Below, piece after piece: positions 9,862-64,000 of a stretch of DNA of 64,000 nucleotides (its first letter is position 1; every line of letters starts with the position of its first letter). Below the pieces are notes generated by a model. That model did not search any database and had not been told where the DNA came from. It was given only the letters and a program-made list of their open reading frames with translations. Made by a program: the position numbers and the translations under genes. The stretch is from Candidatus Binatia bacterium. Lineage in GTDB: Bacteria; Desulfobacterota; Binatia; HRBIN30. The stretch spans positions 555,316 through 619,315 of the forward strand of contig JAXLXM010000001.1 of NCBI GenBank assembly GCA_046327925.1, read 5' to 3'.

Positions 9862-12800
9862 TCACGCGGACGGCGCATCGGCCAGCGGATCGATCTCGCG
9901 CTCCAGGGAGGCCACGTCATCGGGTGACAGGCTGAAGTACCGTGCCTCGGGGTGGTGGAAGACTAACGCCGTAACCGATCCCTCGGGGTCCATCATGTAC
10001 CCCTCGGTGAGTTGAACCCCGATGTGCACCGGCACGTCGAGCAGGCGGAACAGCTTGGCCTGATCTTCAAGGCGCGGGCAGGCCGGATAACCAAACGACA
10101 CGCGGACTCCGCGATAATGGGCTCTAAACAAATCCGCCATCGTCGTCCCCGCCGGATCGGGGAAGCCCCACATTTCGCGGATTTTCTGGTGCAGGAGCTC
10201 GGCGAACGCCTCCACGCCTTCGAGCGCCAGGACCTGCAGGATGTGCGATTTGAGGAATGCGCCCTCCGTCTTCCACTGCTCCGCGAGGCGGCGCACCCCC
10301 GGACCGATGGTGACCGCAAACAGGCACACGTAGTCCGACCGGCCGGCGTCCACCGGCAGGGTGAAGTCCGCCAAACAGAGGTGCGGCTCGACAGATTGCC
10401 GCCCAAAGTGAAAGGTCTCGATCGCGGTGCCGCCGTCGGACGTGTAGAGCCGCAGCCGATTGCCGTCGCTACGCGCCGGGAAGAAGTGGTAGACCGCGTT
10501 GGCGGTAATTTCGGGGTGCGCCAGCATCGTGGCTTCCACCGCCGCGACCTGTGCGCGGAGCGCCGTCGCTTTCGGGTGTCCGGCGGCCAGGGCATCTTCG
10601 AACTTGCCCTTGAAGCCGAGGTGACGCGTGTACAGCATCACCGGATTGATGTACCGGAAGATCGCTTCCAGATCGTAGTCGCGCAGCACGTGCAGCCGCA
10701 GATCCGGCGGTATCGGCACGTCGTCCACCGCGTGCACGACGGATCGCGGTCTACCCGCCCGGACCTCCGTGGGCTGCCGCGCCGGCATCGCCGCCTCGAA
10801 TTGGCGCGATTCCTCCTCAAGCCGGACGACCAGCGCCGCACGCTTGTCCGGATGCATCAGCTGATTCGCCAGGTCCAGCCCCGTCATCGCATCTTTGGCG
10901 TAGGCTACGGTCCCGTCGTATTGCGGAGCGATCTTCAGACGCGTGAACCGGTTGGACAGTGCCGCGCCACCAACCAGAATCGGACAGGCGACGCCGGCAG
11001 CGCTGAGGTCCTGCGCCGTCACCGCCATCATTTGCGCCGACTTGACCAGGAGCCCCGACAGACCGATGAGATCCGGCCGATACTGGCGATAGGCTTTGAT
11101 CAGTTCCTCCGGCGGCACCTTGATACCGAGGTTGACGATCTTGAAGCCGTTGTTGCCGAGAATGATATCGACGAGGTTCTTGCCGATGTCGTGGACATCC
11201 CCTTTCACGGTGGCGAGCAAGACCGTCCCCTTAGCGGCGCTCTCAGCCTTCTCCATATACGGCTCCAGGTATGCCACCGCTGCCTTCATCGCTTCCGCCG
11301 ACTGCAACACTTCGGCAACGATCATCTCGTTGGCGGCAAACAACCGCCCGACCGTGTCCATCCCGCCCATCAGCGGACCGTTGACGATGTCGAGCGGCTT
11401 GCGCTCCCGCAGCGCCAGGTCCAGATCGGCATGCAGACCGTCGCGCGCGCCTTCGACAATATACGAGCTCAGGCGTTCGTCGAGCGGCAGTTCGCGCCGA
11501 CGCTCCATCCGCGGGGTGGACACCTTGGCGCGGAAGTGCGCGGTAAATGCCGCGATCGGGTCGTCGCCGCGCCACCAAATCAGATCCTCCGCCAGCAACC
11601 GTTCCTGTTCCGGAATGGAGGGGTAGCGTTCGAGCTTCTCCGCATTGACGATGGCCATGTCGAGGCCCGCTTGCACGCAATGGTAGAGGAACACCGAGTT
11701 CAGCACTTCGCGCCCTGCCGGTGGTAGACCGAACGAGACGTTGGACACACCCAGGAGGGTCTTGCACGCGGGGAAGGCGTCCTTGATGAGGCGGATACCC
11801 TCGACCGTTTCGACCCCCGAGCCGATATAGTTCCGATCGCCGGTGCCGACGGGAAAGACCAGGGCATCGAAGATCACGTCCTCCGGCGGCACGCCATACC
11901 GAGTGGTCAGCAACTCGTAGGCGCGCCGCGCGATCTGCAGCTTGCGTTGGCGCGTGATCGCCTGCGCCTGATGCTTGTCGTCGTCGATACAGCCGACGAC
12001 GAGGGCGGCGCCGTAGCGGCGCGCCAACGGCACCACCTGCCGGAAGCGCGCTTCGTCATCTTCCAGATTGATCGAATTGACGATCGATTTCCCCTGGGTC
12101 CGCTGAAGGGCCTTCTCGATCACACCGGCGTCCGTGGTGTCGATCATGATCGGCACCTTCACCTTCTTCACGAGCACTTCGAGGAAGGCGCTGACATCGG
12201 CAGCTTCATCGCGGTCGGGATCCTGCAGGCAGACATCCACCACGTGGGCGCCGCGGCGCACCTGGGCGCGTCCCACTTCGGCGGCCTGGTCGAAATCGCC
12301 CGCGGCGATCAGTTCTTTGAACTTGCGGCTGCCCAGCACATTGGTGCGTTCGCCGACGATCACGGGACGGGTATCTCGATCGATGCTGAGCGTCTCGATG
12401 CCCGCGACCAGCGAACGGCGGCTGACGAGCGGCCGGTGTGGCCGGTGGCGCCCCGCCGCGGCGGCCAGCATCCGCACGTGCTCCGCCGTGGTTCCGCAGC
12501 AGCCGCCGACGATATTGACCCAGCCCTCGGCGCAGAAGCGCTCGACTTTTTTCGCCAACATGGCCGGCAATTCGTTGTAGCGTCCCTCTTCGTCCGGCAA
12601 TCCGGCGTTGGGGAATACGGAGATCGGAAACCGCGAAATCTCCGCCAGCGTACGCAGGTGGTCGGTCATGAAATCGGGTCCCGTGGCACAGTTCAGGCCG
12701 ATGGCGAGCAAGTCGCGATGGGCCACCGAGACGTAGAGCGCTTCGATCGACTGCCCAGCCAGCATCGTACCCATGGTTTCGATCGACACCGACAGCACCA

Positions 12801-13380
12801 CCGGCACGGAGCGCCGCAGTTGCGCGCTGGCGTCTTCGATGCCGAGAAGCGCCGCCTTGATGTTGAGGGTGTCCTGTTGCGTTTCGAGGAACAGCACGTC
12901 GACGCCGCCCGCGATGAGCGCCGCGGCTTGCTCGGCAAACGCCGCCTGCACCTCGTCGAAGGCGATCCCGCCGGTCACCGAAATTGCCTTCGTCCCGGGC
13001 CCCATGGAGCCGGCAACGAAGCGCGGCCGGCCGACGGTCGACGCGGCATCGGCGGCCACGCGCGCCAGCCCGGCGGCTCGGAAATTGACCGCGTACACCT
13101 GGTCTTGCAGCCCGTATTCGGCCAGCACGATGCGGGTGCCGCCGAAGGTGTTGGTCTCGATGATGTCCGCGCCGGCGTCCAGATAATCCCGGTGAATGGC
13201 GCTGATGACGTCCGGACGCGTCAGCACCAGGTGCTCGTTGCAGCCCTCCAGCTCGGAGCCGCCGAAGTCCTCGGCGTGCAGGTCGAGCGCCTGAATGGCG
13301 GTTCCCATCGCGCCGTCGAGCACGAGGATCCGTTGCTCCATTGCCGCGCGTAGCATCTGCTCGGATGTCGTATAATCCAT
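9862..13380 (-). CDS. metH: Cobalamin-dependent methionine synthase
   Basis: 1172 aa with all modules: the Hcy-binding domain (GLNCATGP, GGCCGTT), the pterin-binding domain, the B12-binding DxHxxG motif (GDVHDIGKNLV), and the C-terminal reactivation domain. Confidence 0.95.
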   Translation of the reverse strand: MDYTTSEQMLRAAMEQRILVLDGAMGTAIQALDLHAEDFGGSELEGCNEHLVLTRPDVISAIHRDYLDAGADIIETNTFGGTRIVLAEYGLQDQVYAVNFRAAGLARVAADAASTVGRPRFVAGSMGPGTKAISVTGGIAFDEVQAAFAEQAAALIAGGVDVLFLETQQDTLNIKAALLGIEDASAQLRRSVPVVLSVSIETMGTMLAGQSIEALYVSVAHRDLLAIGLNCATGPDFMTDHLRTLAEISRFPISVFPNAGLPDEEGRYNELPAMLAKKVERFCAEGWVNIVGGCCGTTAEHVRMLAAAAGRHRPHRPLVSRRSLVAGIETLSIDRDTRPVIVGERTNVLGSRKFKELIAAGDFDQAAEVGRAQVRRGAHVVDVCLQDPDRDEAADVSAFLEVLVKKVKVPIMIDTTDAGVIEKALQRTQGKSIVNSINLEDDEARFRQVVPLARRYGAALVVGCIDDDKHQAQAITRQRKLQIARRAYELLTTRYGVPPEDVIFDALVFPVGTGDRNYIGSGVETVEGIRLIKDAFPACKTLLGVSNVSFGLPPAGREVLNSVFLYHCVQAGLDMAIVNAEKLERYPSIPEQERLLAEDLIWWRGDDPIAAFTAHFRAKVSTPRMERRRELPLDERLSSYIVEGARDGLHADLDLALRERKPLDIVNGPLMGGMDTVGRLFAANEMIVAEVLQSAEAMKAAVAYLEPYMEKAESAAKGTVLLATVKGDVHDIGKNLVDIILGNNGFKIVNLGIKVPPEELIKAYRQYRPDLIGLSGLLVKSAQMMAVTAQDLSAAGVACPILVGGAALSNRFTRLKIAPQYDGTVAYAKDAMTGLDLANQLMHPDKRAALVVRLEEESRQFEAAMPARQPTEVRAGRPRSVVHAVDDVPIPPDLRLHVLRDYDLEAIFRYINPVMLYTRHLGFKGKFEDALAAGHPKATALRAQVAAVEATMLAHPEITANAVYHFFPARSDGNRLRLYTSDGGTAIETFHFGRQSVEPHLCLADFTLPVDAGRSDYVCLFAVTIGPGVRRLAEQWKTEGAFLKSHILQVLALEGVEAFAELLHQKIREMWGFPDPAGTTMADLFRAHYRGVRVSFGYPACPRLEDQAKLFRLLDVPVHIGVQLTEGYMMDPEGSVTALVFHHPEARYFSLSPDDVASLEREIDPLADAPSA

Positions 13381-52400: not shown

Positions 52401-52553
52401 CAGGAGATTCAGGGCGCGGAGGACGATACTGAAGGTCTTGCCCGAGCCGGGGCCGGCGATGACGAGGAGCGGGCCGTCGAGGTGCCCGATGATTTCGCGC
52501 TGGACATCATTGAGGCGCGGGAAGTGCTCGGCGATTGCCCGCGCGAGCGTCAC
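49407..52553 (-). CDS. UvrD/Rep-family SF1 helicase fused to a Cas4/AddB-type Fe-S PD-(D/E)XK nuclease that carries a nested GIY-YIG domain
   Basis: Helicase motifs are VIAGPGSGKT (Walker A), VLVDEYQDTN, TNYRS and MTIHQTKGLEFPVVVV. The C-terminus has YETCPRQY...GKVDLLL...[GIY-YIG: FFVYVIECDNGSHYIGHTDDLHRRWTEH...REDAVKRERDLK]...ELLDFKTS...YERQLCTYA...CGECDLRMLC. The GTG start at 52553 overlaps the radC stop. Confidence 0.85.
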   Translation of the reverse strand: MTLARAIAEHFPRLNDVQREIIGHLDGPLLVIAGPGSGKTFSIVLRALNLLLLERAHPRQIVLCTFTEKAAFEMRDRLAAAARKVGYAGDLSELTASTIHSLCNRILTQHRHRTELGHSYDTLDELTQLLFIFEHFDAIVGPAENDLFLHRWKTRWTAIEGARAYFDKITEELLDPMLLSASADLFLRCIGDAYRRYERALLDANRTDFAHLQRLVFDLLQDPATAEAVTRDLRYVLVDEYQDTNYIQEQVLLKLTEKSLNLCVVGDEDQSLYRFRGATVRNILEFPQRVPGCHTLKLTTNYRSHRAIVERYDRWMASADWSNRTGASFRYDKTIEADEAGMHPTYPSVIAIWGKDQRDEAARFADLVAFLKKNDVIADYSQVALLLHSVREDHSGPYLAALEVRGIPAFCPRARGYFEIPEVRDLIACFAVIFGWHGEGRGQVAGAVAELATYVDDAIVQLGRRFGAPHPLAASLARWVTQIAGLKEGEALDLRPADYLYHLLALDPFRSAVHNENTARNLAIFSQLLNVFQSYYHYTVVTHRNREFLRWHFFNSFLRLLYDGGINEYEDPDQPFPKGHVQVMTIHQTKGLEFPVVVVGSLSNQRGSPKQTDRDLGHFYHRPPFEPENRITLFDRMRLHYVAFSRPQKLLVLSAHEPPKDHFAPIWQGLPQWPYVQKELLAAQRFEVRERMPVKRTYSFTGDLKIYETCPRQYQFFREYDFTPSRSAVIFFGLLVHQTIEEIHRIALDGKLDTLDEARIRELFERTFRFLCLSDVRPIGDAAKESAFTQVVHYFRQNRDEMRRVIETEVDVSLEKDGYILAGKVDLLLGGDLPAPRPGVFFVYVIECDNGSHYIGHTDDLHRRWTEHLRGSGADWTARYRPVRIAHYEEHPSREDAVKRERDLKTGYGRKYLRRLIESGRARQAGGKLELLDFKTSPRPKDSPDLIAAYERQLCTYAHILERRHGRRVDRLLLYWTSEPRKADALMALPYDPARVEEAGRHFDETVRRIQAREFAVATPPESAICGECDLRMLCHAEGIIARQGVFA

Positions 52554-53278
52554 AGGAGGCCGGCCTTTCGGAAGCTGAATGCGTCCTGCGCCGAGACGAT
52601 GAGGTGGTCCACGACGCGAACGCTGACCGCCTCGGCAGCCAGCACGATGGCACGGGTCAGAACCTTGTCCTGCTCGGTCGGCGCGACCGTTCCGTTCGGA
52701 TGGTTGTGGGCAAGGACAACGCCGAAGGCGCGGCGCCGCAGAGCGGCTTCGATCACGCGCCGCGGGTACACGGCTGCACGATCAATGGTCCCTTCTTCAA
52801 GCGTCTCGATACCGTCGCGCAGCAGCCGGTAGCCGGAATCGAGATAGCCGACCTCGAAGACCTCGTGCTGCAGCGCGCCGATGCGCATCCGCCAGAAGCT
52901 TGCGAGCCGGTCGGGCTCGGCCAGGACATCGCGTCCCTCGCCGCCCTGCTGAAGGTACAGGGTCGCGGCCGCCCGGATGACCCGCAGGGCCACGGGCGTG
53001 ACGCTCCCGATACCCGGCACGGCACGGAGTTCTTCGATGGGCGCATCGAGGATGTCGCGGAGGTTTCCGAAGCGGGCGATGAGATTCTTTGCCGGCCGCT
53101 TCACGTCGGAGCGGGGGATCGCGAGCGTTAAGAGCAGCTCGACCACCTCGTAATCCGCGAAGCCGTCCAGGCCGGACTTCAGGAAGCGGTCGCGGAGGCG
53201 CTGCCGGTGACCGAGGTAGCGGGGATCGTCATCGCTCATGTCCTGGCGCGTCTCGATTCCTGTCGGCGTGCGAATCAA
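52550..53278 (-). CDS. radC: RadC-family (DUF2466, JAB/MPN-like) protein
   Basis: HhH region ELRAVPGIGSVTPVAL and the C-terminal JAB motif VVLAHNHPNG. The start is either 53278 or the ATG at 53239 (MSDDDPRYLGHRQRLRDRF), the latter being closer to typical RadC N-termini. Confidence 0.85.
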   Translation of the reverse strand: MIRTPTGIETRQDMSDDDPRYLGHRQRLRDRFLKSGLDGFADYEVVELLLTLAIPRSDVKRPAKNLIARFGNLRDILDAPIEELRAVPGIGSVTPVALRVIRAAATLYLQQGGEGRDVLAEPDRLASFWRMRIGALQHEVFEVGYLDSGYRLLRDGIETLEEGTIDRAAVYPRRVIEAALRRRAFGVVLAHNHPNGTVAPTEQDKVLTRAIVLAAEAVSVRVVDHLIVSAQDAFSFRKAGLL

Positions 53279-53490: not shown

Positions 53491-54285
53491 TCACGCCGTG
53501 GGGCAACGGACGTGGATGCGAAAGAGATACAGGAATGAAAACACAGCGGCGGCACCGCCCGCCAGACCCCACAAGCCGTTGAGGATCCAGTACAGCAGGG
53601 GCGCAAGGATGGAATCCGTGGCGATGTTGGCGAAGCGCTCGACGATGCCGCCGTACCCGATGAAGAAGCAGACGTTGTAGAACTGCAGGGCGCCGCTGAG
53701 GCCAAAGAGGGCGAATGCCTGCGCGTCTCGGCCGCGCCACAACCGCACCAGCGCCGCGGCAATGGGAATGGCGATCACCCAGAACGAGAGTTCCGCCAGC
53801 ACAAAAAAGGGTGTCAGCCCCCCATAATCCAAATCGGACGAGAAATAGCCCCACCACCAAATGTAATAGGGCAGGCTGGCCTGTGTGTGCGCGACGTTCT
53901 CAAACGCCGACCGGTACACGACCGGAGGCACCTCCCAGATGAGAATCCACAACGACGAAAAACAAAACCAGTGGAGGATATAGCCCCGCCAGCACAGTTC
54001 CCGCGGATACGGCAGGAACAGCGGCGCGAAGATGATGACGGCGAGGACGGGGACGGCCGTCAGCCAGGCGGCGCGGGCGACGAAGATGACATCGAGATCG
54101 AGCGCGCGCGACAGGATCACCCACGCGACGAAGACCAGCGGCAGCGCGCCCAGCAAGGCAACCCCCTGAACGCGCCGTGAATGTCGCAGATGACGCGCCC
54201 CCAGGGTCATATCGAGATCCGTCGTCGCCGCGGAATGTGCCTCCCCGATCGACGACGGCGCTTGACTGATAGAACCGTACTGCAT
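53491..54285 (-). CDS. Multi-pass membrane protein, family not recognised
   Basis: 264-aa ORF with about 7 hydrophobic helices and many Trp/Tyr/Phe residues (YYIWWWGYFSSDLDYGG). GC is somewhat lower than the surroundings. The start is not resolved. Confidence 0.5.
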   Translation of the reverse strand: MQYGSISQAPSSIGEAHSAATTDLDMTLGARHLRHSRRVQGVALLGALPLVFVAWVILSRALDLDVIFVARAAWLTAVPVLAVIIFAPLFLPYPRELCWRGYILHWFCFSSLWILIWEVPPVVYRSAFENVAHTQASLPYYIWWWGYFSSDLDYGGLTPFFVLAELSFWVIAIPIAAALVRLWRGRDAQAFALFGLSGALQFYNVCFFIGYGGIVERFANIATDSILAPLLYWILNGLWGLAGGAAAVFSFLYLFRIHVRCPTA

Positions 54286-54399: not shown

Positions 54400-54708
54400 C
54401 TATTCCTGCAGGAAAGTCTTGTCGTCGCGCACGGACATTTCCGCCCGCCCGAGTTCGTAGGCCACGTACGCAAGGTGGTCGCGATTGATGCCCCAGTTGA
54501 TCAGCATCTTGCGCAGACCGACGGTGTCGCCGCTGAAGGCGATGCGCGGCAGATCATCGACCATCACGGTCACCCGGCCGCACTTTCGATGCGGCAGCGC
54601 CTCGACGACGAAGCAATACCCAGCCTTGTCCTCCTCCCAAGCGTCGTTCGGTCCGATTTCCTCGAAGGTGAGGTCGGGGTACTGCTCCTTCAGCTCCTCA
54701 AGCTTCAT
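54400..54708 (-). CDS. Hypothetical 102-aa protein co-transcribed with the corrinoid-reactivation genes
   Basis: ATG ORF (MKLEELKEQYPDLTFEEIG...) overlapping the stop of the upstream gene by 11 nt. The amino-acid composition is balanced. No family is recognised. Confidence 0.45.
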   Translation of the reverse strand: MKLEELKEQYPDLTFEEIGPNDAWEEDKAGYCFVVEALPHRKCGRVTVMVDDLPRIAFSGDTVGLRKMLINWGINRDHLAYVAYELGRAEMSVRDDKTFLQE

Positions 54709-55438
54709 TGTTGGCGTTCCTTTCTCCCGGCTCGCCCGGGTGGCGTGCGCGGTCCTGGGGGAATTGGCGGACCGAGCAGTGTTCGAGGTCGCAGATGCGG
54801 CACGGCACCACTTCGGCGGCGGCGGATCCGCCGGGGACCAGCCCGATCACATTGAGCAGCGACTTCGCCGGCAGCATCATGAACTGCCCGTTCAATTCGA
54901 CCGGCAGACGGTGGCGGTCGAGATACGAGAAGAGGACGGCGGTGTCCTCCAACCGCCAACCCGTGTAGCCGGGCCCGTAGCGGATCGTCGTGCCGAAGCC
55001 GCGCACGCGGGCGTCGTTGCAGACCCGTTCACGGACGGCGGCCATCACCCGCGTCACCGCGGCCGATGCGCCGGCGTCGAGGGCCAGCGCTTCCACCATG
55101 GCGCCCGCGGCCACCAGACGTTGGATCTCCTCCATCACCGCGGCGCCCACGGTCGCCAGACAGATCCGCACGGCGGTGGCGCGGCGTAGAATCGCGGCGA
55201 GGCGGCGCCCCGATAACATGCGGCCGCCATCGAGGCGGACCGCCTCCACGGTCACGGCCTCGACGCGGACCTCGTGCACGCCCGCCCACGGCCGGACGAA
55301 CTGATCGAGCCGGCCGAGTTGGTCGAGGCAGATCTCGTGGACGGGCGCCGAGACGCGGGTGCGGTCCGGATACCCGAGGGCGCGGAAGAGCGCGTCCGCA
55401 TCGATTGCCAGCCCGCCTCCCTGGATCACCGTTTCCAC
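54698..55438 (-). CDS. Stand-alone methionine-synthase activation-domain-like protein (Met_synt_B12 family)
   Basis: ICLATVGAAVMEEIQRL...EALALDAGASAAV......YGPGYTGWRLEDTAVLFSYLD....PVELNGQFMMLPAKSL fits the pattern I recall for the MetH reactivation domain and its stand-alone homologs in corrinoid methyltransferase loci. Length is 246 aa. Confidence 0.65.
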   Translation of the reverse strand: METVIQGGGLAIDADALFRALGYPDRTRVSAPVHEICLDQLGRLDQFVRPWAGVHEVRVEAVTVEAVRLDGGRMLSGRRLAAILRRATAVRICLATVGAAVMEEIQRLVAAGAMVEALALDAGASAAVTRVMAAVRERVCNDARVRGFGTTIRYGPGYTGWRLEDTAVLFSYLDRHRLPVELNGQFMMLPAKSLLNVIGLVPGGSAAAEVVPCRICDLEHCSVRQFPQDRARHPGEPGERNANNEA

Positions 55439-55456
55439 CCCCGTCTCCTCCGCCCC

Positions 55457-57409
55457 CTATTCGCAGTGCGCGAGCCAGCCGTCCGCGAGGGACGGAAAGT
55501 GGTCGGTCGCATGCGGCAGATGGGTGGCGTCGACGAACGCATCCATGAATCCCGGCTCGGCCGTCAGCTCCACGTATTCGACCTGGCGCGCCATGCGCTC
55601 GGCCTCGGCGCGTTTGTGACGATTCAGGAGGGCGATGCGCGCGCCGTCACCCGCGGCATTGCCGACCGCCCGAACATTCTCGATGCCACAATCCGGGAAC
55701 ATGCCCAGCCAGAGGGCGCGTTCGACATCGATGACGCTGCCGAACGCGCCGGCCAACGTGACTCGATCCGGGCGGGCAATTCCGAAGCGCCGTAGGAGCA
55801 ACTGGCCGCCGGTGTACAGCGCCGCCTTGGCGAGTTGGATGGCACGCACGTCTTCCTGGGTTACCGTGATGTCGATGCCAATGGCCGTCTGTTCCGCCCA
55901 GGCGACGACGAACTCGAACCCGCCGTCGGTGCATGGCCGCACCCGCGGCGACCCGCCGCCGTTGCGGATGCGGCCGCTGCGATCGACGATTCCGGCGTGG
56001 AACATCTCGGCGACGGTTTCGAGGATCGCCGACCCGCACAGGCCGCGCGCCTGCAACGTGCCCGGTTCGACGCGCGTGCTCCAGCGCGGATTGCCGATTA
56101 CCCGGAAGCGGACGTCGCCCGTTGCGGGATCGATCCGAACCTTGTCGATCGCCCCGGGCGTAGCCCGCGTGCCGAACTTGATACACGCGCCTTCGAGCGC
56201 CGGACCGGTCGGGCACGAGGCGGAGAGCAGCCGGTCGCGGTTGCCCAACAGCAGCTCGGCGTTGGTGCCGATGTCGATGATGAGCTGGACCTCGTCGCGC
56301 CGGTGCGGTTCCTCGGCGATGAGCACGGCGACGTTGTCCGCGCCGACGAAAGCGGCCTCGATCGGTAGGAGGTGAACGTTGGCCGAGGGCAGGATCGCCA
56401 AGCCCACATCGCGCGCCTTGACGTCGACAGCGCCGCTGACCGCGGGTGTGAACGGGACGATCCCCAAGGCCTGCACGTCGAGGCCAAGAAAGATGTGGTG
56501 CATGGCGGTGTTGGCGACCAGCACCACCTCGGCGATATCCAGCGGCGCGATCGACGCCTGCGTGGCCGTCTCGCGCGCCAATGCACCGACCGCGTCGACG
56601 ACCAGCCGCCGCATGGCTTCGAGCCGGTCACGACCTTTGCTGCTGGCGATGCGATTCATCACGTCTTCGCCATGCGCGATCTGCGGGTTCATCATGGCGC
56701 TACTGGCTAGCACCTCTCCGCTGGCCACATCGCACAGGTAGGCGGCGACGGTCGTGGTGCCGAGGTCCACCGCGAGGCCGTACGCCCGTTCGCTATAGCC
56801 CGGCTCGATGCGGATCACCTCCTGGCCGTTCCACACGGTGGCCGTGACGGCGCCGTCGCCCGCCCGCAACGCGGCGGGGAGTTGCCGTAACGCGTAGGGG
56901 TCGATGCGCAGATGCGGCAGCGCAAAGTGCGCGTCGAGCGCGGCGCCGAGCCGCTCCCAATCCCCCCGGGGATCCGTCAAACTGGGTGGGGCGGGGCGTA
57001 CGTAGTGCTGGTGCAGGGTGGGGGCAATGTCGATGGACCGCTCGCAGGCCGCTTTCAGGATGATGGGCCGGTCCACCCGGCTTTCCTCCGGGACGTACAC
57101 GACCACGTCGCCCCGCACGCGGGCCTGGCACGACAGCCGCTCCCCGGCGCGCAAGGGACGGCGACCCGTGTAGCGCAGCTCCTCCGGCGTCGGCGGCGAC
57201 ACGTGACTGCCGTGCGAGGCGATGCCCTGCTCGGGGTGCGGCCCCTCCAACACACGCACCTTGCACTTGCCGCACACGGACTGTCCGCCGCAAATGGTTT
57301 CGATGCCGACACCAAGCAAACGCGCGGCCTCGCGCAGCGTCGTTCCCGCGGCGATCTCGCCACACTCGCCGGAAGGCAAGAAGCAGACTCGATGTGTCGT
57401 CATTGCCAA
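55457..57409 (-). CDS. RACo-like reductive activator of corrinoid enzymes (2Fe-2S ferredoxin domain + ASKHA ATPase, DUF4445)
   Basis: The N-terminus has plant-type ferredoxin Cys spacing (ICGGQSVCGKCKV...LSCQA). The long C-terminal ASKHA-like region includes YGLAVDLGTTTV and IDIGTNAE phosphate-binding loops. Length is 650 aa. Confidence 0.85.
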   Translation of the reverse strand: MAMTTHRVCFLPSGECGEIAAGTTLREAARLLGVGIETICGGQSVCGKCKVRVLEGPHPEQGIASHGSHVSPPTPEELRYTGRRPLRAGERLSCQARVRGDVVVYVPEESRVDRPIILKAACERSIDIAPTLHQHYVRPAPPSLTDPRGDWERLGAALDAHFALPHLRIDPYALRQLPAALRAGDGAVTATVWNGQEVIRIEPGYSERAYGLAVDLGTTTVAAYLCDVASGEVLASSAMMNPQIAHGEDVMNRIASSKGRDRLEAMRRLVVDAVGALARETATQASIAPLDIAEVVLVANTAMHHIFLGLDVQALGIVPFTPAVSGAVDVKARDVGLAILPSANVHLLPIEAAFVGADNVAVLIAEEPHRRDEVQLIIDIGTNAELLLGNRDRLLSASCPTGPALEGACIKFGTRATPGAIDKVRIDPATGDVRFRVIGNPRWSTRVEPGTLQARGLCGSAILETVAEMFHAGIVDRSGRIRNGGGSPRVRPCTDGGFEFVVAWAEQTAIGIDITVTQEDVRAIQLAKAALYTGGQLLLRRFGIARPDRVTLAGAFGSVIDVERALWLGMFPDCGIENVRAVGNAAGDGARIALLNRHKRAEAERMARQVEYVELTAEPGFMDAFVDATHLPHATDHFPSLADGWLAHCE

Positions 57410-57785
57410 AGCGCCGCGCTCACAAGCGGTAGGGCGGTCTCATGATTCGATGCGATTAGTCTCGATATATCCGATCGGCATGCACCGCTCAACGGGGCCG
57501 GCCCGCGGGGCTGGCCCGCGGGCGATGGATGCGCGCGGCAGCGAGAGTGGGCGATCGCCGACCGCAACTCCGGATCCGTGCGGCGCTCGGCGGCGACAGG
57601 CGAGCGGACTGGCCCGAGCGCCGCGGCGCTGAGGATCTTGACCAGGGCGGAGTGGATTTGACGCAGAGCGCCGCACGGGGTACCGGTGCTGGGCACTCTG
57701 AGTTCGGGGAGCGCGTGGATGCCTTTCGCGACCAACCGTCGTTTCGAGGACCACCGCCGGTGGCGACGCAGGCGGAGGCACGGCC

Positions 57786-58238
57786 ATGAGACGTAAGGTT
57801 GCACGCCCCGCCGACACACCGGCCGACATCTATGACTATTGGCACCGGCGCTGGTGCGAGATCCTGACGCAGCATCACCGGCAAGCCATTGTCGACGCCG
57901 GCCTTGCCGGCATGAGCTTCACGGAACGCGTACCCGACGCACCGGACGGCAAAGGTTACTTCAGTTATGTCTTCGCCGCTGATGGCTCCGTGCAGTTCAT
58001 GGAGGGGGAGGGCGACGCGGTTGCGGCCTACGAGAGCTACGAGCTCGGCTTCCGCATGCTGAGCGACGACACGCTGGATGTCGCGCAACCGATCGCCAGC
58101 GGACGATTCCGGATGATCAGCAAGCCCGAGCGCTGGCGTATCCTCATGAGTCTGATTCCCATCCTTCGCGATGCCTGCCGCCGCGCTATCGAGGACGCCG
58201 AGCGCGAATTCGACGTGGAGTTGCCGAAATACTGGTAG
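57786..58238 (+). CDS. Hypothetical protein, possibly SCP2-like fold
   Basis: 150-aa ORF divergent from the RACo gene. A weak by-eye resemblance to SCP2 sterol-carrier domains (...MLSDDTLDVAQPIASGRFRMISKPE...). Confidence 0.4.
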   Translation: MRRKVARPADTPADIYDYWHRRWCEILTQHHRQAIVDAGLAGMSFTERVPDAPDGKGYFSYVFAADGSVQFMEGEGDAVAAYESYELGFRMLSDDTLDVAQPIASGRFRMISKPERWRILMSLIPILRDACRRAIEDAEREFDVELPKYW

Positions 58239-58485
58239 CGGGCACGGGACAGGAATCGCAGCGAGGCGTCCCCGAGCGCAGTGGCCTTCACCTGGTTCGG
58301 CGGCCATACCGGCCTGCAAGCCCGCTTTGTCGGATGAGCTGGGAGGCCTGGGGATACCCTTCCAATGGCGCGATCATGCTTCGACAGCGCACACGCAAAC
58401 GAGGTACTATCCCCGGAGTGCGCACGGGCAGAAAGGGGACAAACGGCATGGCGGTCAAGGCGATGGCTTCGAGGGGGCGGTACAC

Positions 58486-59427
58486 ATGAGTATGAACGTG
58501 TCGGTCGCGACGCTGACGGCGACGGGTCCGGTGCTGACCGACGGCGCCTGGGGCACGCAGCTCCAGGCGCACGGATTGCCCCCCGGCGAGGTGGGCGACG
58601 TCTGGAACGTGGTCTATCCCGAACGCGTCGAAGCGGTCGCCCGTGCATACGTCGACGCCGGAAGTCAAATCATTCTCACCAACACCTTTCGGGCCAACCG
58701 GATCGCGCTCGAACGTTCCGCGGAGCGTGACCGGGTGGTCGACATCAATCGCGCCGGGGTGGAAATCTCGCGGCGCGCCGCACAAGGACGGGCACTGGTG
58801 TTCGCGTCCATCGGGCCCAGCGGCAAGCTGCTCATGCGACGCGACATCACCGAGAGCGCATTGGCGGCGGCTTTTGCGGAGCAAGCGCACGCCCTGGCGG
58901 AGGCGGGCGCGGATGCGCTGGTAGTCGAAACCATGAGCGACGTGGTGGAGGCCCGAATTGCGGTCGAAGCGGCGGCGGCCACCGGTCTGCCGGTGGTGGC
59001 CTGCATGGTGTTCGATGCCGGAAAGGCGAAGGACCGGACGATGATGGGCGTGAGCGCGCAGCAGGCGGCGGTCGACCTCACGCGTGCGGGGGCCGCTATC
59101 GTTGGCGCGAACTGCGGGCTCGGTATCGAGCAAGTCGTTCCCATTTGTGCGGCACTGGCGGGCGCCACGGACCGCCCCATCTGGATCAAACCCAACGCCG
59201 GCATTCCCGAGCTGATCGCTGGGGAGATCGTCTATCGGATGACGCCGGAGGCGTTCGCGGGGTACGTACCGCAACTGATTGCGGCGGGGGCGCGTTTCAT
59301 CGGCGGGTGTTGCGGGACGACGCCGGCATTCATCGCGGCACTCCGTTCGCAACTGCGCGCCTGCGCAGGCGGTACGTCCACCGACGGGCGACCGAAGCGG
59401 CGGCTACTCGAAACTGAGCGCCGCTGA
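58486..59427 (+). CDS. Stand-alone homocysteine S-methyltransferase domain protein (Pfam S-methyl_trans type)
   Basis: LTDGAWGTQL, ILTNTF, ETMSD, and the Zn-ligand Cys motifs GANCGLG and GGCCGTTP. It is collinear with the N-terminal module of MetH. Length is 313 aa from the ATG at 58486. Confidence 0.8.
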   Translation: MSMNVSVATLTATGPVLTDGAWGTQLQAHGLPPGEVGDVWNVVYPERVEAVARAYVDAGSQIILTNTFRANRIALERSAERDRVVDINRAGVEISRRAAQGRALVFASIGPSGKLLMRRDITESALAAAFAEQAHALAEAGADALVVETMSDVVEARIAVEAAAATGLPVVACMVFDAGKAKDRTMMGVSAQQAAVDLTRAGAAIVGANCGLGIEQVVPICAALAGATDRPIWIKPNAGIPELIAGEIVYRMTPEAFAGYVPQLIAAGARFIGGCCGTTPAFIAALRSQLRACAGGTSTDGRPKRRLLETERR

Positions 59428-59575: not shown

Positions 59576-60448
59576 TCACCGCCTCATTTTGGCGATGATG
59601 TTGTTGGCGAACTCCTCGATCCGCGCCCGTTTCGCCTCCAGCGTCGAGGTTGGCCCGATGGTGAAGGTGAAGGGATAGCTCACCATCCCGCCCGCTCCGG
59701 CGTCCTCGAGACGCTTGAACGTGTCCACGTCCGGCGGGCTATTGATGGGGACAATGCTGTCGAACGGCTCCGTGCCGCGTCCGGCTTCGGCGCGCAACTG
59801 ATCCAGACGCCGCAAAGTCTCGAGCGCTTGCTCGAGGGATTGCCCGGGGCCCAGCCAACCGTCGCCCAGCCATGCGGCGCGGCGCAGCGCCGCCGGCGTG
59901 ATGCCGCCGATGTAGATCGGAATGGGCTGGCGCGGCGCCGGCAGCATGCGCACCGGAGGGAAGTCGAAGAAGCGGCCGTGGTGCTCGACCAGTTCGCCGC
60001 TCCAGAGCTTGCGCATGACCGCGATGCATTCGTCGAAGCGCTTGCCGCGCGTGTGGAAATCCACGCCGAGGAGATCGTACTCCTCCTTCATCCAACCGGC
60101 GCCGGCGCCGAGGGCGATGCGACCTTCGCAAAAGGAGGCGGCGCTGCCGATCGCCTTGGCCACCTCGATGGGATTGCGCAGCGGCAGGACAAAGACGTTG
60201 GTGGCGAAGCGGATGCGCTTGGTCATCGCGCCGACGGCGGCGAAGAACGACCACGCATCGGGCCACACGGTGAGTGGCGTGAACGGCGGTAGGCCGCTCG
60301 GTGTGTACGGGTAGCGCGGCGCCATGTGCTGAAAGTGAATCAAGTGGTCGGAAATGGTGATGCCGTCGAAGCCGGCGTCTTCCGAGAGCTTGGCGACCGC
60401 AATGAACTGGTCGGCCTCGGTGAACGCGATGGATTGCCAGAAGCGCAT
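59576..60448 (-). CDS. Luciferase-like (LLM class) oxidoreductase, probably F420-dependent
   Basis: MRFWQSIAFTE.DQ....A..SE.AGFDGITISDH and the later GGI.P.ALRRAA.LGDGW pattern are typical of F420-dependent LLM subfamilies. Length is 290 aa. Confidence 0.75.
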   Translation of the reverse strand: MRFWQSIAFTEADQFIAVAKLSEDAGFDGITISDHLIHFQHMAPRYPYTPSGLPPFTPLTVWPDAWSFFAAVGAMTKRIRFATNVFVLPLRNPIEVAKAIGSAASFCEGRIALGAGAGWMKEEYDLLGVDFHTRGKRFDECIAVMRKLWSGELVEHHGRFFDFPPVRMLPAPRQPIPIYIGGITPAALRRAAWLGDGWLGPGQSLEQALETLRRLDQLRAEAGRGTEPFDSIVPINSPPDVDTFKRLEDAGAGGMVSYPFTFTIGPTSTLEAKRARIEEFANNIIAKMRR

Positions 60449-60612: not shown

Positions 60613-61695
60613 TCAGCGCCGCAGCCGGCGTCCGGTTACCAGCGGCAGGTCGAGGGCGGAGAGGATTCCCGGCGCGGCCTGGCACACCGCGGGGATCGCG
60701 TTCACCACGCGCGTGGCGGTGGCGAGAATGCCGCCGGCTACGTGATCGCCGCTGGCATCCCGCTGATCGAAGTGGCAGGTCATCTTCGGATCGCCGTCGA
60801 TCGTGATGTAGTACCCGGGGCCGTCGCGACCCTGCGGCCAGTCGGGGCCGATGTCGGGACGCAGGCGGGTAACGTGCTCGAGCACGATCGTCGGGCGACC
60901 CGCGACGATGCCCTGCACCGCGAAGCGTAACGCGGCCGCCGTACCCTTGCGGATCGGGCCGGCTTGGATCTCGAAGTCATCGGCAGCCGGCAAACGTTCG
61001 TATACCTCGCGAACCGCGTCCAGGGTGACGCCCAGACCCGCGGCGATGGCGTGTACCGGACCGCCCCAGACGTACGTCAGAACACCCGGCTTGAACAGGT
61101 TCGGCACGTAGTCCATCGGCATGCCAAAACCCATGCGCTCGTAGAGGATCTGTTGCGCGACGGCTCTGGACGCCGGGCAATAGGTCGCGTAATCGAGGAT
61201 CTCCATCACGTGGATCGACGTCCAATACTGGCACAGGCCACTGATGACCAGCGGCAGGGTGTCGCTGGCGAAGCCGGGTTCGATGCCGGAGGTGAAGACG
61301 GACTTTCCGCTCGCGCGGCACGCCGCCTCCAGCTTGCGCACCAAGCTCTGGTCGGGGAACGATGGCGGGTACACGAGGCCGACGACGGAGGTAGAGACGA
61401 TATTCTTGCCGGACGCGAGCATACGGCACATCAGGTCGACAGTCTCGGCCTCGCGCTCGTCGCCCGAGGCCGCGGAACAAACGCAATCGGCATCGAGGGC
61501 CAGCAGCGCGTCGATGTCGTTGGTGGCCGCAATCCCGGTGCGTCCGAGCCCGCACAGCTCCCCGGCGTCCCTGCCTACCTTCTCCGGGCTGTGGACCCAC
61601 ACGCCGACCAACTCGAGATCGGGATGCTCGATCACGGCGCGCAGGGCAAAATGGCCGACGAAGCCGGTCGCCCATTGGATCACCTTGTAACGCAT
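60613..61695 (-). CDS. DapB-N-like NAD(P)-binding protein (amine dehydrogenase / 2,4-diaminopentanoate dehydrogenase-like family)
   Basis: MRYKVIQWATGFVGHFALRAVIEHPDLELVGVWVHSPEKVGRDAGEL is the N-terminal signature I associate with this family. Length is 360 aa. Confidence 0.6.
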   Translation of the reverse strand: MRYKVIQWATGFVGHFALRAVIEHPDLELVGVWVHSPEKVGRDAGELCGLGRTGIAATNDIDALLALDADCVCSAASGDEREAETVDLMCRMLASGKNIVSTSVVGLVYPPSFPDQSLVRKLEAACRASGKSVFTSGIEPGFASDTLPLVISGLCQYWTSIHVMEILDYATYCPASRAVAQQILYERMGFGMPMDYVPNLFKPGVLTYVWGGPVHAIAAGLGVTLDAVREVYERLPAADDFEIQAGPIRKGTAAALRFAVQGIVAGRPTIVLEHVTRLRPDIGPDWPQGRDGPGYYITIDGDPKMTCHFDQRDASGDHVAGGILATATRVVNAIPAVCQAAPGILSALDLPLVTGRRLRR

Positions 61696-61732: not shown

Positions 61733-62671
61733 TCACACCAGCGCGTCGATGCGCCGATCCACCGCTCGCAGGAACGTAGGCATCTCGTTGGGGTGATCGA
61801 TGAATTGCGACGGTTTGATGGTGATCGAGTGCACGCCCGCTGCCAACAGGGGGGGCACGCTGGTGTCGATACTGCGGGCGAGGTCGGCGGGCTTGGTGGG
61901 GTGCGTGAATATCGGGAACACGAGGCCGCTCGTTTTCAGAGATGAGACGTCGCGTCCCGCCTTGCCCATCTCCGCGGCCAGAAGGGCGAGACCTTCGGCA
62001 TCGGGCGCGCTGGTCAGGGTGTAACCGCTGCCGTACTTGACGATGCGCTCGATGACCTTCGTGCTCATGCGCTCCCCGCCGATGATGATTTCCGGTCCGC
62101 CGGGCTGCACCGGCTTGGGCATGACGTAGATGTCCTTGAAGCTGTAATATCGCCCCTCGTAGCTGGCCGGCGTCTCCCGCCAAACCAGGCGCATGATCTC
62201 CAGTTGCTCGTCGAGGCGGCGGCTACGCTGCGCGAAGGGGATGCCGAAGGCGGCGTATTCTTCGTGCTGCCAGCCGGCGATTGGTGTAATGGTGACGCGC
62301 CCGCCGGAAAGCAGGTCCAACGTCGCCCACTGCTTCGCGTTCAGTAGCGGCGGGCGCAACGGCACGAGGGTGGCGGTGGCGTGCAGCCGAATGCGCGAGG
62401 TGACCGCGGCGATCGCCGACATCATGACGATCTGACTCGGCATGTGCTGGTCCGGGCGCTGATTGCCGACCCAACGAAAGGCGCGCGGATTGTCCGGCAG
62501 GCCCTTAAAATCGGCGTGCGGCCCCATCACGACGTGGTCGATGATGTGGATGCCATCGTAACCCGCGTCTTCCGCCTGCTGCGCGAAGCGCAAGACGAGC
62601 CGTTCTTCGTCCGGTTTGATGAGCGTGTCGAGTTCGCTCAGGATGACGGTCAGCTTGGGCTTCCGCGGCAT
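61733..62671 (-). CDS. Luciferase-like (LLM class) flavin/F420-dependent oxidoreductase
   Basis: A.QAEDAGYDGIHIIDHV, TIM-barrel-length 312 aa, GGR...I..GW pattern. Confidence 0.75.
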   Translation of the reverse strand: MPRKPKLTVILSELDTLIKPDEERLVLRFAQQAEDAGYDGIHIIDHVVMGPHADFKGLPDNPRAFRWVGNQRPDQHMPSQIVMMSAIAAVTSRIRLHATATLVPLRPPLLNAKQWATLDLLSGGRVTITPIAGWQHEEYAAFGIPFAQRSRRLDEQLEIMRLVWRETPASYEGRYYSFKDIYVMPKPVQPGGPEIIIGGERMSTKVIERIVKYGSGYTLTSAPDAEGLALLAAEMGKAGRDVSSLKTSGLVFPIFTHPTKPADLARSIDTSVPPLLAAGVHSITIKPSQFIDHPNEMPTFLRAVDRRIDALV

Positions 62672-62722: not shown

Positions 62723-63982
62723 CTAGTGCAGCGGCATCCCCAGCCGCGCCAACTCGTCCATGACGCGCAACATGCCGGCTTCGTACGCCGGCTTGGGCCG
62801 CACGGTTTCAAGGTCGTAGGCGTCAGGGAACGCAACCTGCTTCTCGACGGTCGGCAGCAGTTCGTCCACCTTGCGCATGATCTTCTGCGCCAGTTCGTTG
62901 GACTTCTCGGGGGACAGGCCGGTGCACGCCTTCATCATCTGATCGATCAAGCGGGCTTCCAGTCCCGTGTGCCCGGAGATCCAGGAGTAAGACATGCCGC
63001 TGGCGACGTACACCGCCACCACCGCCGCCGACTGCCACAACGACACCGGCGTGCGCCACACCCGGTCGATGCCGGAGATGGACGAGCCCACCGCCAGGCC
63101 CAGGTGCCGCTCCGAGGCGCGCGCCGCGCCGCTGAAGGCCCAGTGCGAGTCGCGCGTGGCCCAGGTGCCGTCGAGATGGCTGGGGAAGTAGCTCATGGTG
63201 CCGCCGTGCGCATAGCTCATTTGCCCGAGCCCGTTGGCCACCATGGTCACGGCCACCTCGGCGCCATCGCGGCAGAGGCCGCCGATGCACGACATCGAAC
63301 TCTGCCACGGCTCGATGCCCTTGATCTCGCAGTACTGGGCCAGGAGCAGCGGATTCCAGCTCAGTTTCTGTTCGGGCATGATGTGGATGCCGATCTGCGT
63401 GTTGTAGGCATCGCGGTAACCGCCCTCCATGACGGCCATGGTGCCGCTCGGCGTACTGGCCGTGCCCAGCAGCCCAAGATTCAAGTGCAGGCGTCCCGCG
63501 CGCTTGAGCGCCTCGCGCAAGGCTTCCTGTTCCCACAGGGCGACGTAGACTTCGGTCAACGTCCCCGCTTTCGGATCGATGGTATCGAGCCGGGCCAAGC
63601 CGGGGCAAATGCCGAGCCCGGCGACCGACGGCTCCTGCGCGATGGACTGCACGTAGGGAATGAACCATTCCTGCGCCGCCACGCCGGCGGGGCCGGCATA
63701 GTTGGTCGGTGCCCATGGATCGGTGCCCTTGCGGTGGCGCAAGGTCATTTTATCTGGGGCCTTACCGAGCGTGACGCAGGCCGGGTTCTCGCGCGATTCC
63801 TTGGCGATCTGTTGGAGCTCCTCCTTCGTGTACTTGACGACGCGACCGGTGTTCATCTGGTACAGTCCGATCTCGGCAAGCAGGTCGACCGCGGCGTGGA
63901 ATATGGCATCGGCCGTCCGCTCGCTGACGACCAGATTGTCCGGGTCGTACTTGATATCGTACTCCGCGACCAGCTCGCGCAC
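62723..63982 (-). CDS. Non-pyrrolysine homolog of monomethylamine methyltransferase MtmB (possibly 5'-incomplete at the window edge)
   Basis: Collinear by eye with my recollection of Methanosarcina MtmB:
- GLYQMNTGRVVKYTKEEL versus GIYCTDTHRIVKYTEDEI.
- AGPAGVAAQEWFIPYV versus GGPTGSPISEDVFMPVH.
- HLDGTW versus HLDGPV.
- HTGLEARLIDQM...AFPDAYDLETVRPKPAY...LARLGMPL versus TTGMEARMMGEV...TFQECYDVKTVTPTEEY...LEDLGLVF.
There is no in-frame stop. The frame is still open from 63983 to 64000, so the true start may lie outside the window. Confidence 0.8.
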   Translation of the reverse strand: MRELVAEYDIKYDPDNLVVSERTADAIFHAAVDLLAEIGLYQMNTGRVVKYTKEELQQIAKESRENPACVTLGKAPDKMTLRHRKGTDPWAPTNYAGPAGVAAQEWFIPYVQSIAQEPSVAGLGICPGLARLDTIDPKAGTLTEVYVALWEQEALREALKRAGRLHLNLGLLGTASTPSGTMAVMEGGYRDAYNTQIGIHIMPEQKLSWNPLLLAQYCEIKGIEPWQSSMSCIGGLCRDGAEVAVTMVANGLGQMSYAHGGTMSYFPSHLDGTWATRDSHWAFSGAARASERHLGLAVGSSISGIDRVWRTPVSLWQSAAVVAVYVASGMSYSWISGHTGLEARLIDQMMKACTGLSPEKSNELAQKIMRKVDELLPTVEKQVAFPDAYDLETVRPKPAYEAGMLRVMDELARLGMPLH

Positions 63983-64000
63983 CTTGAAGGCGAGCTCCAG

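Follow-up and report, generated by a model that had tools for sequence, protein, structure and literature searches.

A putative emt-like corrinoid methyltransferase cluster with a stand-alone homocysteine methyltransferase in a Candidatus Binatia contig

Estrogen-to-androgen methylation by the cobalamin-dependent Emt system has so far been shown in only a few cultured denitrifiers. In this system, S-adenosylmethionine (SAM) is the stoichiometric methyl donor and the steroid the methyl acceptor (Jacoby et al., PMC7448270), with EmtA—B9N43_10325 in Denitratisoma sp. DHT3—as the catalytic subunit (10.1101/714501); PMC7448270 names no SAM-binding component. Denitratisoma oestradiolicum additionally carries, beside emt, a second and induced SAM-regeneration set of MetK, S-adenosylhomocysteine (SAH) hydrolase, adenosine kinase, MetH, MTHFR and SHMT (PMC7448270). 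Stand-alone homocysteine modules are known from the split methionine synthase (MetH) of Phaeobacter and Ruegeria, whose MtgE shares a corrinoid hub with other methyltransferases (PMC5764234, PMC12478193). Here, we analyse a 64,000-nt stretch of contig JAXLXM010000001.1 from a Candidatus Binatia bacterium (hereafter the window, to which all coordinates refer and which is the part of the genome covered). Its last segment, from 53.5 to 64 kb, holds a gene cluster that we read, with belief and doubt evenly matched, as an emt-type, cobalamin-dependent, SAM-driven C-methyltransferase set in which a stand-alone homocysteine S-methyltransferase (Hcy-MT) would support the SAM cycle.

The cluster and its counterpart in Denitratisoma

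An earlier note on this DNA had described several of these genes as the parts of a split MetH. The genes it listed are all present where it had placed them, and RACo (a reductive activator), the activation-domain-like gene, the 102-aa open reading frame (ORF) and the Hcy-MT gene are real and under purifying selection. Indeed, the ratio of nonsynonymous to synonymous substitutions (dN/dS) is 0.05–0.26 for every cluster gene compared with a relative, the partner being L019 for the 150-aa gene and Hcy-MT, and L008 or L106 for all others (L-numbers, L007–L024 and L105–L111, denote related loci fetched for comparison; L108 is the DHT3 emt locus). The assignment, by contrast, needs revision: the set matches emtABCD plus activators (Table 1), and its members would be the activation and SAM-entry components of that system rather than pieces of a MetH. 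In DHT3, B9N43_10290 and B9N43_10285 adjoin each other, as do RACo and the 246-aa gene in the window. The 386-aa luciferase-like (LLM) protein of the DHT3 emt neighbourhood, counterpart of the window's LLM_b, adjoins the DHT3 150-aa gene, and the corrinoid proteins of the window's relatives share 80% identity with DHT3 EmtB.

The MtmB-like gene closing the cluster is present as the earlier note had it, with one correction: no stop occurs between 63983 and 64000, so the ORF runs off the window. Its relatives are 448 aa long, placing about 29 codons and everything upstream beyond the cut. Homologs of the encoded protein include B9N43_10325, that is, DHT3 EmtA. Besides the match to this protein (Table 1), it is 68% identical to EmtA of D. 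oestradiolicum, while the two experimentally supported EmtAs are themselves 71% identical. The window protein diverges from the known EmtAs as little as these do from one another and is, by sequence, an ortholog-level relative. A true pyrrolysine (Pyl)-containing methylamine methyltransferase (MtmB proper) was ruled out, since Pyl202 of Methanosarcina barkeri MtmB aligns to a Gly and the gene lacks an in-frame stop.

The same genes travel together elsewhere. Around relatives of the 246-aa protein, the recurrent set comprises RACo (adjacent in most), the 102-aa gene, an MtmC-like corrinoid protein and the MtmB homolog (67–84% identity), often along with MetK and luciferase-like oxidoreductases. 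RACo, the 246-aa gene, EmtC, EmtB and EmtA are linked in metagenome-assembled genomes (MAGs) of Deltaproteobacteria, Binatia, Gammaproteobacteria/Steroidobacteraceae and Myxococcales, and linkage of RACo, the activation-domain-like gene, the 102-aa gene and the MtmB homolog was seen in more than ten independent loci. These observations support RACo, the 246-aa protein, the 102-aa protein and the MtmB homolog as one conserved corrinoid methyl-transfer system. The conservation of the neighbourhood, which the earlier note had proposed to examine, holds for these four; Hcy-MT accompanies them only in some lineages. MetK lies beside the clusters in L007, L010, L011, L014, L016 and L109, the last also with SAH hydrolase and adenosine kinase (PfkB), and these genes fit the induced SAM-regeneration set of D. 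oestradiolicum. Within the conserved set, the EmtC-like 102-aa protein overlaps the 246-aa gene by 11 nt, is rare (8 representative clusters among 1.84 billion proteins) and strongly constrained (45 invariant columns across 9 loci; dN/dS 0.05). Its single-sequence AlphaFold model was unusable (predicted local distance difference test, pLDDT, 52), and sequence-profile searches of the PDB with the 102-aa and 150-aa families were empty.

As to the corrinoid protein itself, a six-frame phmmer search of the window with the MetH B12 region revealed no B12-binding domain besides that of MetH (motif DVHDIG at residue 728), in line with the earlier note. Because a corrinoid gene lies directly upstream of emtA in L107 (whose EmtA is 95% identical to that of the window), L010, L012, L014, L018, L108, L109 and L111, the EmtB gene of this genome very probably sits just beyond base 64000. 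The earlier note's concern that no corrinoid gene might be encoded nearby is thus eased, judging from relatives. A 3166-nt Logan contig, found in three of four runs (X1, X2 and X10), extends 2.5 kb beyond base 64000. Exact look-up of LLM_b returned short Logan contigs, all breaking inside emtA.

Relatives carry two or three EmtA paralogs (L105 423–5659; L106 107–3872; L109 10001–14702, in tandem), which share 62–80% identity with each other and 75–80% with the window protein. Corrinoid genes beside these tandem paralogs number one in L109 and none on L106; in L105, the first paralog is preceded by a cut 104-aa ORF. Inside the window's emtA, at 63211–63262 and 63375–63406, contig depth is two- to three-fold higher in wastewater metagenomes, and all Logan contigs break there. 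Both features agree with a co-occurrence of several emtA paralogs, be it within genomes or within communities.

We next consider the presumptive activators. RACo displays the complete [2Fe-2S]/linker/middle/ASKHA layout (Fer2, RACo_linker, Raco_middle and RACo_C_ter in Pfam) and falls short of the AcsV equivalog (420 bits versus a cut-off of 800, NCBIfam). It directly adjoins the 246-aa gene in six of seven species-genome loci, in the window, in L008–L011 and in the DHT3 locus; L007, L017 and L109/L110 are the exceptions. The 246-aa family is rare, with 33 proteins in a collection of 5.8 billion and seven loci in 185,579 species genomes. Pfam and NCBIfam returned nothing significant for the 246-aa, 102-aa, 150-aa or 264-aa proteins, the MetH activation domain (PF02965) scoring E 0.19 on the 246-aa protein, below the Pfam threshold. 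Profile and structure comparisons agree, however, with the earlier note's view of the latter as MetH-reactivation-like. When its 22-member family alignment was compared by hhalign with the activation domain of the window's own MetH, the probability was 91% (E 9e-7). The family profile matched Thermotoga maritima TM0269 (1j6r) over its full length at E 2e-9, with RYGPGY aligned to RISPGY. For an AlphaFold model with pLDDT 82.7, Foldseek returned 1j6r as the top match (E 4e-11; template-modelling score, TM, 0.84), followed by all other MetH reactivation domains in the list. On the strength of hhalign, profile and predicted-model Foldseek, the assignment of the 246-aa protein as a remote homolog of the MetH AdoMet-binding activation domain stands. 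Because of this fold, the protein is a natural candidate for the SAM-binding component of the Emt system, and a fold-based assignment of a RACo-adjacent protein to this probable role appears undescribed in the literature searched.

All 22 family members share YGPGYTGW and three cysteines (C213, C216 and C221). The latter belong to a C-terminal tail, PCRxCDLxxC, which is invariant in 22/22 members and reads PCRICDLEHC in the window (54776–54805; residues 212–221); C37 and C140 are nearly invariant. TM0269 is devoid of the Cys motif, its alignment to the family profile stopping at residue 210/214, before the tail. Though modelled at low confidence, the tail could form a metal or Fe-S site. In L008, a second 246-aa paralog (7303–7944; 47% identical) lies just upstream of RACo, so that two activation-domain-like genes flank RACo there.

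Taken together, we picture the system as follows. An EmtB-type protein, presumably encoded just beyond base 64000, would carry the cobalamin, and RACo, like other members of its family, would restore Co(I) from oxidised Co(II) at the expense of ATP and a low-potential electron. The 246-aa protein, with its MetH activation-domain fold and RxxxGY motif, would bind SAM and methylate the cobalt, thereby filling the SAM-binding role. The EmtA homolog, given its identity to EmtA, may then methylate a phenolic steroid or another nucleophile of this kind, with EmtC, EmtD and the other luciferase-like proteins as conserved accessories. Hcy-MT, recruited in this lineage, would most likely regenerate methionine from the homocysteine that remains once SAM has been used. 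We liken this last role to the situation in Denitratisoma, where a second MetH, MetK and SAH hydrolase beside emt serve the same purpose; the SAM-cycle content of the window consists of Hcy-MT beside the cluster and MetH about 40 kb away.

Table 1 Features of the emt-like cluster and the MetH gene, with their counterparts in the emt neighbourhood of Denitratisoma sp. DHT3
Feature	Position	Strand	Evidence	DHT3 counterpart (identity)
264-aa membrane protein, last gene of the RACo operon	53491..54285	-	No Pfam family; several hydrophobic segments	
EmtC homolog, 102 aa	54400..54708	-	Identity to DHT3 EmtC	EmtC (70%)
Stand-alone protein of MetH-activation-domain fold with Cys-rich tail, 246 aa	54698..55438	-	hhalign, profile, Foldseek	"Methyltransferase-activating protein" B9N43_10285 (44%)
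RACo/RamA-type ATP-dependent corrinoid reductive activator ([2Fe-2S] + ASKHA)	55457..57409	-	Four Pfam domains	RamA-like B9N43_10290 (58%)
TetR-family regulator gene remnant	57562..57761		blastn 78% over 200 nt to L019 TetR gene, E 1e-42	
150-aa conserved protein	57786..58238	+	76% identity to gene upstream of EmtB in L019	Neighbouring 150-aa gene (59%)
Remnant of lost emtA paralog, 3' end	58266..58334	+	blastn 79% over 72 nt, E 1e-11	
Stand-alone Zn-type homocysteine S-methyltransferase (Hcy-MT), split-MetH Hcy module, MtgE-like	58486..59427	+	PF02574	
EmtD homolog, luciferase-like, TIGR03619 F420-type oxidoreductase	59576..60448	-	Pfam, NCBIfam, identity to DHT3 EmtD	EmtD (58%)
DapB/2,4-diaminopentanoate dehydrogenase-like oxidoreductase	60613..61695	-	Pfam DAP_DH_C, DapB_N	
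Second luciferase-like oxidoreductase (LLM_b)	61733..62671	-	Pfam, NCBIfam	Neighbouring 386-aa LLM (69%)
EmtA homolog, non-pyrrolysine MtmB-family corrinoid methyltransferase; 5' end cut by window end	62723..64000	-	PF05369 at 2e-34	EmtA (73%)
Full-length five-module MetH, outside the cluster	9862..13380	-	S-methyl_trans, Pterin_bind, B12-binding_2, B12-binding, Met_synt_B12 (Pfam)	

The homocysteine methyltransferase and its operon

Hcy-MT consists of a single PF02574 domain (3.6e-65, Pfam) with the Zn-ligand Cys motifs GANCGLG (residues 207–213) and GGCCGTTP (residues 273–280); in the PDB, the Hcy domain of T. maritima MetH matches it best (8e-45). Its family is very large and made up of stand-alone proteins of ~292 aa. 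To characterize its genomic contexts, we surveyed 53 metagenome loci (53–71% identity; enough flanking sequence; 4-kb radius). A stand-alone corrinoid protein was a neighbour in 26 of the 53, mostly directly upstream, a RACo-type protein in 17 and a pterin-binding protein in 9. Among closer relatives, L022–L024 have a corrinoid protein followed by Hcy-MT. The Hcy-MT of the window is best read as a corrinoid-protein-dependent Hcy module of the split-MetH type. Recruitment of such a module into emt-type operons appears undescribed in the literature searched.

The nearest relative of the window, a MAG labelled Deltaproteobacteria, allowed us to place Hcy-MT within a longer operon. Its loci L019 and L106 share an overlap of 1010 nt, 99.9% identical, and, together with L107, make up one reconstructed supercluster. 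In L019, whose Hcy-MT is 84–86% identical, a single operon encodes a flavin adenine dinucleotide (FAD) oxidoreductase, the 150-aa protein, EmtB, an EmtA paralog, Hcy-MT, an Fe-S/CCG protein and the alpha and beta subunits of an electron-transfer flavoprotein (ETF), with EmtB as the only corrinoid protein. The window is collinear with the supercluster, minus several segments: the FAD gene; EmtB and the EmtA paralog, which in the supercluster separate the 150-aa gene from Hcy-MT; the Fe-S and ETF genes that follow Hcy-MT there; and a second EmtA paralog, flanked by LLM_b and the DapB-like gene. Some of these sites retain remnants. The stretch at 58266–58334 matches L019 5538–5609, inside the MtmB/EmtA gene, and the next aligned block (58332–59386) covers the last bases of that gene and then Hcy-MT; the TetR remnant contains no intact ORF. 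Judged from this alignment, Hcy-MT is the intact survivor of a longer, decayed operon (FAD oxidoreductase, 150-aa, EmtB, EmtA paralog, Hcy-MT, Fe-S, ETF).

With respect to individual operon members, the 150-aa protein is conserved beyond the nearest relative (63% identity to the L109 gene, in addition to the DHT3 match in Table 1; dN/dS 0.14). The FAD oxidoreductase gene (L019 1653–3155; L109 11425–12882) lies directly upstream of the 150-aa gene, with a 4-nt overlap in L109 and a 20-nt gap in L019. Its product belongs to the flavocytochrome c/KstD superfamily, the best NCBIfam match being vinyl phenol reductase, below cut-off; an identity as KstD was rejected, as the KstD models scored far below their own cut-offs.

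Hcy-MT was absent from all 12 of the 12 loci fetched via the 246-aa protein (L007–L018), and it is therefore a recurrent, lineage-specific addition to the emt-like set, not a core component.

Direction of methyl flow and rival readings

Several points weigh against the SAM-driven reading. Substrate, direction and enzyme activity cannot be derived from sequence. The activation domain of MetH serves only repair, and the SAM-transfer role of the 246-aa protein is a proposal. Neither MetK nor SAH hydrolase turned up among the Pfam-scanned proteins of the window, and the corrinoid gene was not seen for this genome itself, the window stopping inside emtA. A tblastn search with the MetH pterin module found only MetH in the window, that is, no stand-alone PF00809 protein to load methyl-tetrahydrofolate for Hcy-MT. 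Drawing the methyl group from SAM-charged EmtB would instead be a futile cycle. Having lost its operon neighbours, Hcy-MT may also be a gene on its way out, despite a dN/dS of 0.20 (versus L019). The tandem EmtA paralogs of relatives, with at most one corrinoid gene, suggest several substrates for one corrinoid hub. Finally, the EmtA/AbeA family works in both directions, as AbeABC demethylates androgens (PMC11912376).

The last point leads to a tentative possibility that runs the system the other way. Here, the EmtA-type protein would act as methyltransferase 1 (MT1), taking a methyl group from C-19 of a 1-dehydro-androgen or from another donor and loading EmtB, and Hcy-MT would be methyltransferase 2 (MT2), yielding methionine without methyl-tetrahydrofolate. 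This is close to what the earlier note had proposed as a three-component corrinoid pathway, of which the corrinoid system itself stands, being conserved in more than ten loci, whereas the flow characterised for Emt is the opposite one, from SAM to steroid (PMC7448270). Substrate-to-homocysteine flow is supported by gene arrangements. The single L019 operon unites EmtB, an EmtA paralog and Hcy-MT around one corrinoid protein; L111 holds Hcy-MT, a URO-D-like methyltransferase and a short RACo beside EmtC-EmtB-EmtA (Hcy-MT and the URO-D-like protein being 5 kb from the trio), with no 246-aa protein and no MetK; and in L020/L021, a corrinoid protein, a URO-D methyltransferase and Hcy-MT follow one another in the classic layout of MT1, corrinoid protein (CoP) and MT2. 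There is precedent in vitro, where Emt runs the reverse demethylation (PMC7448270), and in the physiology of AbeABC (PMC11912376); a corrinoid protein common to an MT1 and an Hcy module is documented in Ruegeria (PMC12478193); and MetK beside emtA also fits methionine as the product. The window, on the other hand, retains the putatively SAM-binding 246-aa protein beside a long RACo, as does the methylating Denitratisoma system, while SAH hydrolase and adenosine kinase beside relatives point to SAM consumption and not only to methionine production. Further evidence speaking against this direction is the lack of Hcy-MT from the 12 loci above, the deletion of its EmtB and EmtA-paralog operon partners from the window and the small catabolic gain to be had from routing a steroid methyl group into methionine.

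A related and somewhat doubtful proposal assigns Hcy-MT as the MT2 of an EmtA/AbeA-type system, passing a methyl group of an androgen, or of another donor that the EmtA paralogs handle, via EmtB to homocysteine, and extends this to its whole family, which would accept methyl groups universally from MT1 enzymes of diverse kinds (EmtA-like, URO-D-like and pterin-type). URO-D-family (MtaA-like) genes do lie directly beside Hcy-MT, at 3419–4501 in L020/L021 and 4370–5368 in L111, and the L020 layout, where the corrinoid gene is also adjacent, looks like a complete MT1-CoP-MT2 unit ending in homocysteine. Near the EmtA homolog of the window, we found no stand-alone pterin-binding gene, and no URO-D type among the Pfam-scanned cluster proteins. 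If Hcy-MT does accept the methyl group, the reaction could run toward estrogen formation outside strict anaerobes; non-fermenting bacteria of wastewater and sediment would then make estrogens from androgens and, without folate, methionine.

An unlikely reading severs Hcy-MT from emt function altogether, regarding it as an ordinary split-MetH module with partners elsewhere, or as a gene stranded by operon decay whose proximity is historical. Most family members indeed occur in split-MetH contexts without EmtA, three deletions and the TetR and emtA remnants surround the gene, its dN/dS exceeds that of the emt genes over the same divergence (0.06–0.12), and a complete MetH, which the earlier note had recognised and all five Pfam modules bear out, is also encoded in the window. 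Against this, three independent arrangements, those of the window, L019+L106 and L111, bring Hcy-MT together with EmtB/EmtA, as probably does the L109 contig, and the ORF is intact, with all Zn ligands kept and a dN/dS well below 1.

We set aside, as highly improbable, a corrinoid-independent enzyme of the BHMT, MmuM or YagD type using betaine, S-methylmethionine or SAM—the single PF02574 domain, the listing of bacterial BHMT (NF005718, 229 bits) and MmuM-type (NF007020, 98 bits) models and the homology of MtgE to a predicted Sinorhizobium meliloti Bhmt (Mausz et al., PMC12478193) notwithstanding—since these scores lie under the curated cut-offs (338 and 215 bits, respectively; likewise 254 versus 453 for YitJ, NF006396), the best solved relative is a MetH Hcy domain and, contrary to the grouping that the earlier note had named as fatal to its proposal, the family context is corrinoid-linked, about half of the related loci having a corrinoid gene directly beside that of Hcy-MT and a third having a RACo-type activator.

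Surroundings, habitat and comparison with known systems

Among the remaining cluster genes, the 264-aa membrane protein has an 85–87% identical counterpart in L008/L009, in the same place after the EmtC-like gene (dN/dS 0.10); its match to the CobD_Cbib Pfam family is weak and not significant (E 0.28). In Denitratisoma, a CobD/CbiB gene adjoins the ortholog of the 246-aa protein. The DapB-like gene is syntenic in L105 and L106 (89–91%) and absent from more distant emt-like loci. An Rfam scan of the window revealed no cobalamin riboswitch and no other Rfam family. Promoter-like sites in the window were not above chance, and terminator-like sites were so modestly (10 found versus 5.6 +/- 2.7 expected).

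Directly adjoining the emt-like cluster is a mobile or defence-type island (44873–53278). It encodes a DUF6788 protein, a DUF772 transposase-domain protein (45150–46802), a Schlafen AlbA_2/HATPase_c_4/Fic-like_C protein (47953–49470), a 1048-aa UvrD helicase/PD-(D/E)XK protein with an embedded GIY-YIG domain and a Cas4-like end (49407–52553) and RadC (52550–53278); the island may be linked to the deletions in the cluster. Further upstream lie a short-chain dehydrogenase/reductase (SDR; 41356–42111) and an 866-aa protein carrying two family III CoA-transferase domains (42161–44761), gene types frequent in clusters for the breakdown of steroids and bile acids. ChsH2-like, thiolase, enoyl-CoA hydratase and MaoC genes occur in related loci. 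Elsewhere in the window, an 855-aa ORF without Pfam family (3346–5913) occupies the most GC-rich part (GC 0.72); a 455-aa ORF on the opposite strand (4015–5382) has an equally high GC content at third codon positions (GC3), and either could be the real gene. A 228-aa fragment of a mutator-family transposase (26915–27601), covering part of a 379-position profile, is probably a decayed insertion sequence.

To gauge where the locus occurs, a 9.5-kb segment was searched for in metagenomes: in 20 of them, sampled from wastewater, sludge and biofilm in at least nine studies, 74–100% of sampled words were present. Proteins nearly identical to those of the window bear the label of a Deltaproteobacteria MAG, and relatives that of Candidatus Binatia. 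With the locus and its relatives, uncultured Deltaproteobacteria/Binatia-like bacteria join the holders of emt-type clusters, here nearly complete and containing as many as three EmtA paralogs, and the window's DNA recurs in many wastewater plants, where estrogen removal matters. The core cluster would be a new member of the known Emt system, to which the Hcy module in EmtB/EmtA operons would add either a local closure of the SAM cycle or a methyl-acceptor branch.

How, then, does the locus relate to described systems? The closest is the Emt system, with its RamA-like/RACE activator, of Denitratisoma sp. DHT3, D. oestradiolicum and Steroidobacter denitrificans (10.1101/714501, PMC7448270), every component of which is matched in the window at 44–73%, except for EmtB, expected just off its end. 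Both have a non-pyrrolysine MtmB-type catalytic subunit, a pair of RACo and activation-domain-like genes, SAM-cycle genes (in our case beside relatives) and a wastewater habitat, DHT3 having been isolated from a treatment plant (10.1101/714501). They differ in that the window's host belongs to an uncultured lineage, in a rearranged gene order, in relatives with two or three EmtA paralogs, in extra DapB-like and LLM genes, and in a stand-alone Hcy-MT where Denitratisoma has a full MetH.

Hcy-MT itself resembles the split MetH of Phaeobacter and Ruegeria, made up of the corrinoid hub MtgC, the pterin module MtgD, the Hcy module MtgE, a RamA-like DUF4445 protein and DUF1638 (PMC5764234, PMC12478193). 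It is a stand-alone PF02574 protein whose family is typically flanked by a corrinoid protein, RACo/DUF4445 and sometimes a pterin-binding protein, and one corrinoid protein serving several methyltransferases is an established idea. Unlike the roseobacter system, the window lacks a stand-alone pterin-binding protein, a second B12-binding domain and, among its Pfam-scanned proteins, DUF1638, and it encodes a complete MetH alongside; the neighbouring MT1 in the nearest relative is EmtA-type, not MtgB or MttB, and an activation-domain-like protein is not part of the roseobacter system.

By sequence profile as well as by fold, the 246-aa protein is best matched, over the full length, by TM0269 of T. 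maritima, and the two have an RxxxGY-type motif in common. Their identity is only 17%, however, the 246-aa family has the extra invariant C-terminal tail, and the protein is paired with RACo and Emt genes, not with a core MetH.

The AbeABC androgen demethylase of Phosphitispora sp. TUW77 (PMC11912376) draws on the same EmtA/AbeA and EmtB/AbeB families and shows a demethylating MT1-CoP-MT2 direction to be possible. In this strict anaerobe, AbeC passes the methyl group to tetrahydrofolate, feeding the Wood-Ljungdahl pathway, whereas the only MT2 candidate of the window is Hcy-MT. AbeA shares ~40% identity with EmtA (the AbeA/AbeB-EmtA/EmtB set reaching at most 57%; PMC11912376), as opposed to the 73% of the window protein. 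MtqB, the tetramethylammonium/choline:corrinoid methyltransferase of Methanococcoides (PMC13044021), is another non-pyrrolysine MtmB-family member with a shown function, and it demonstrates that the family accepts substrates besides monomethylamine. It is archaeal and works with a coenzyme M (CoM) methyltransferase as MT2; the window protein is probably far closer to EmtA.

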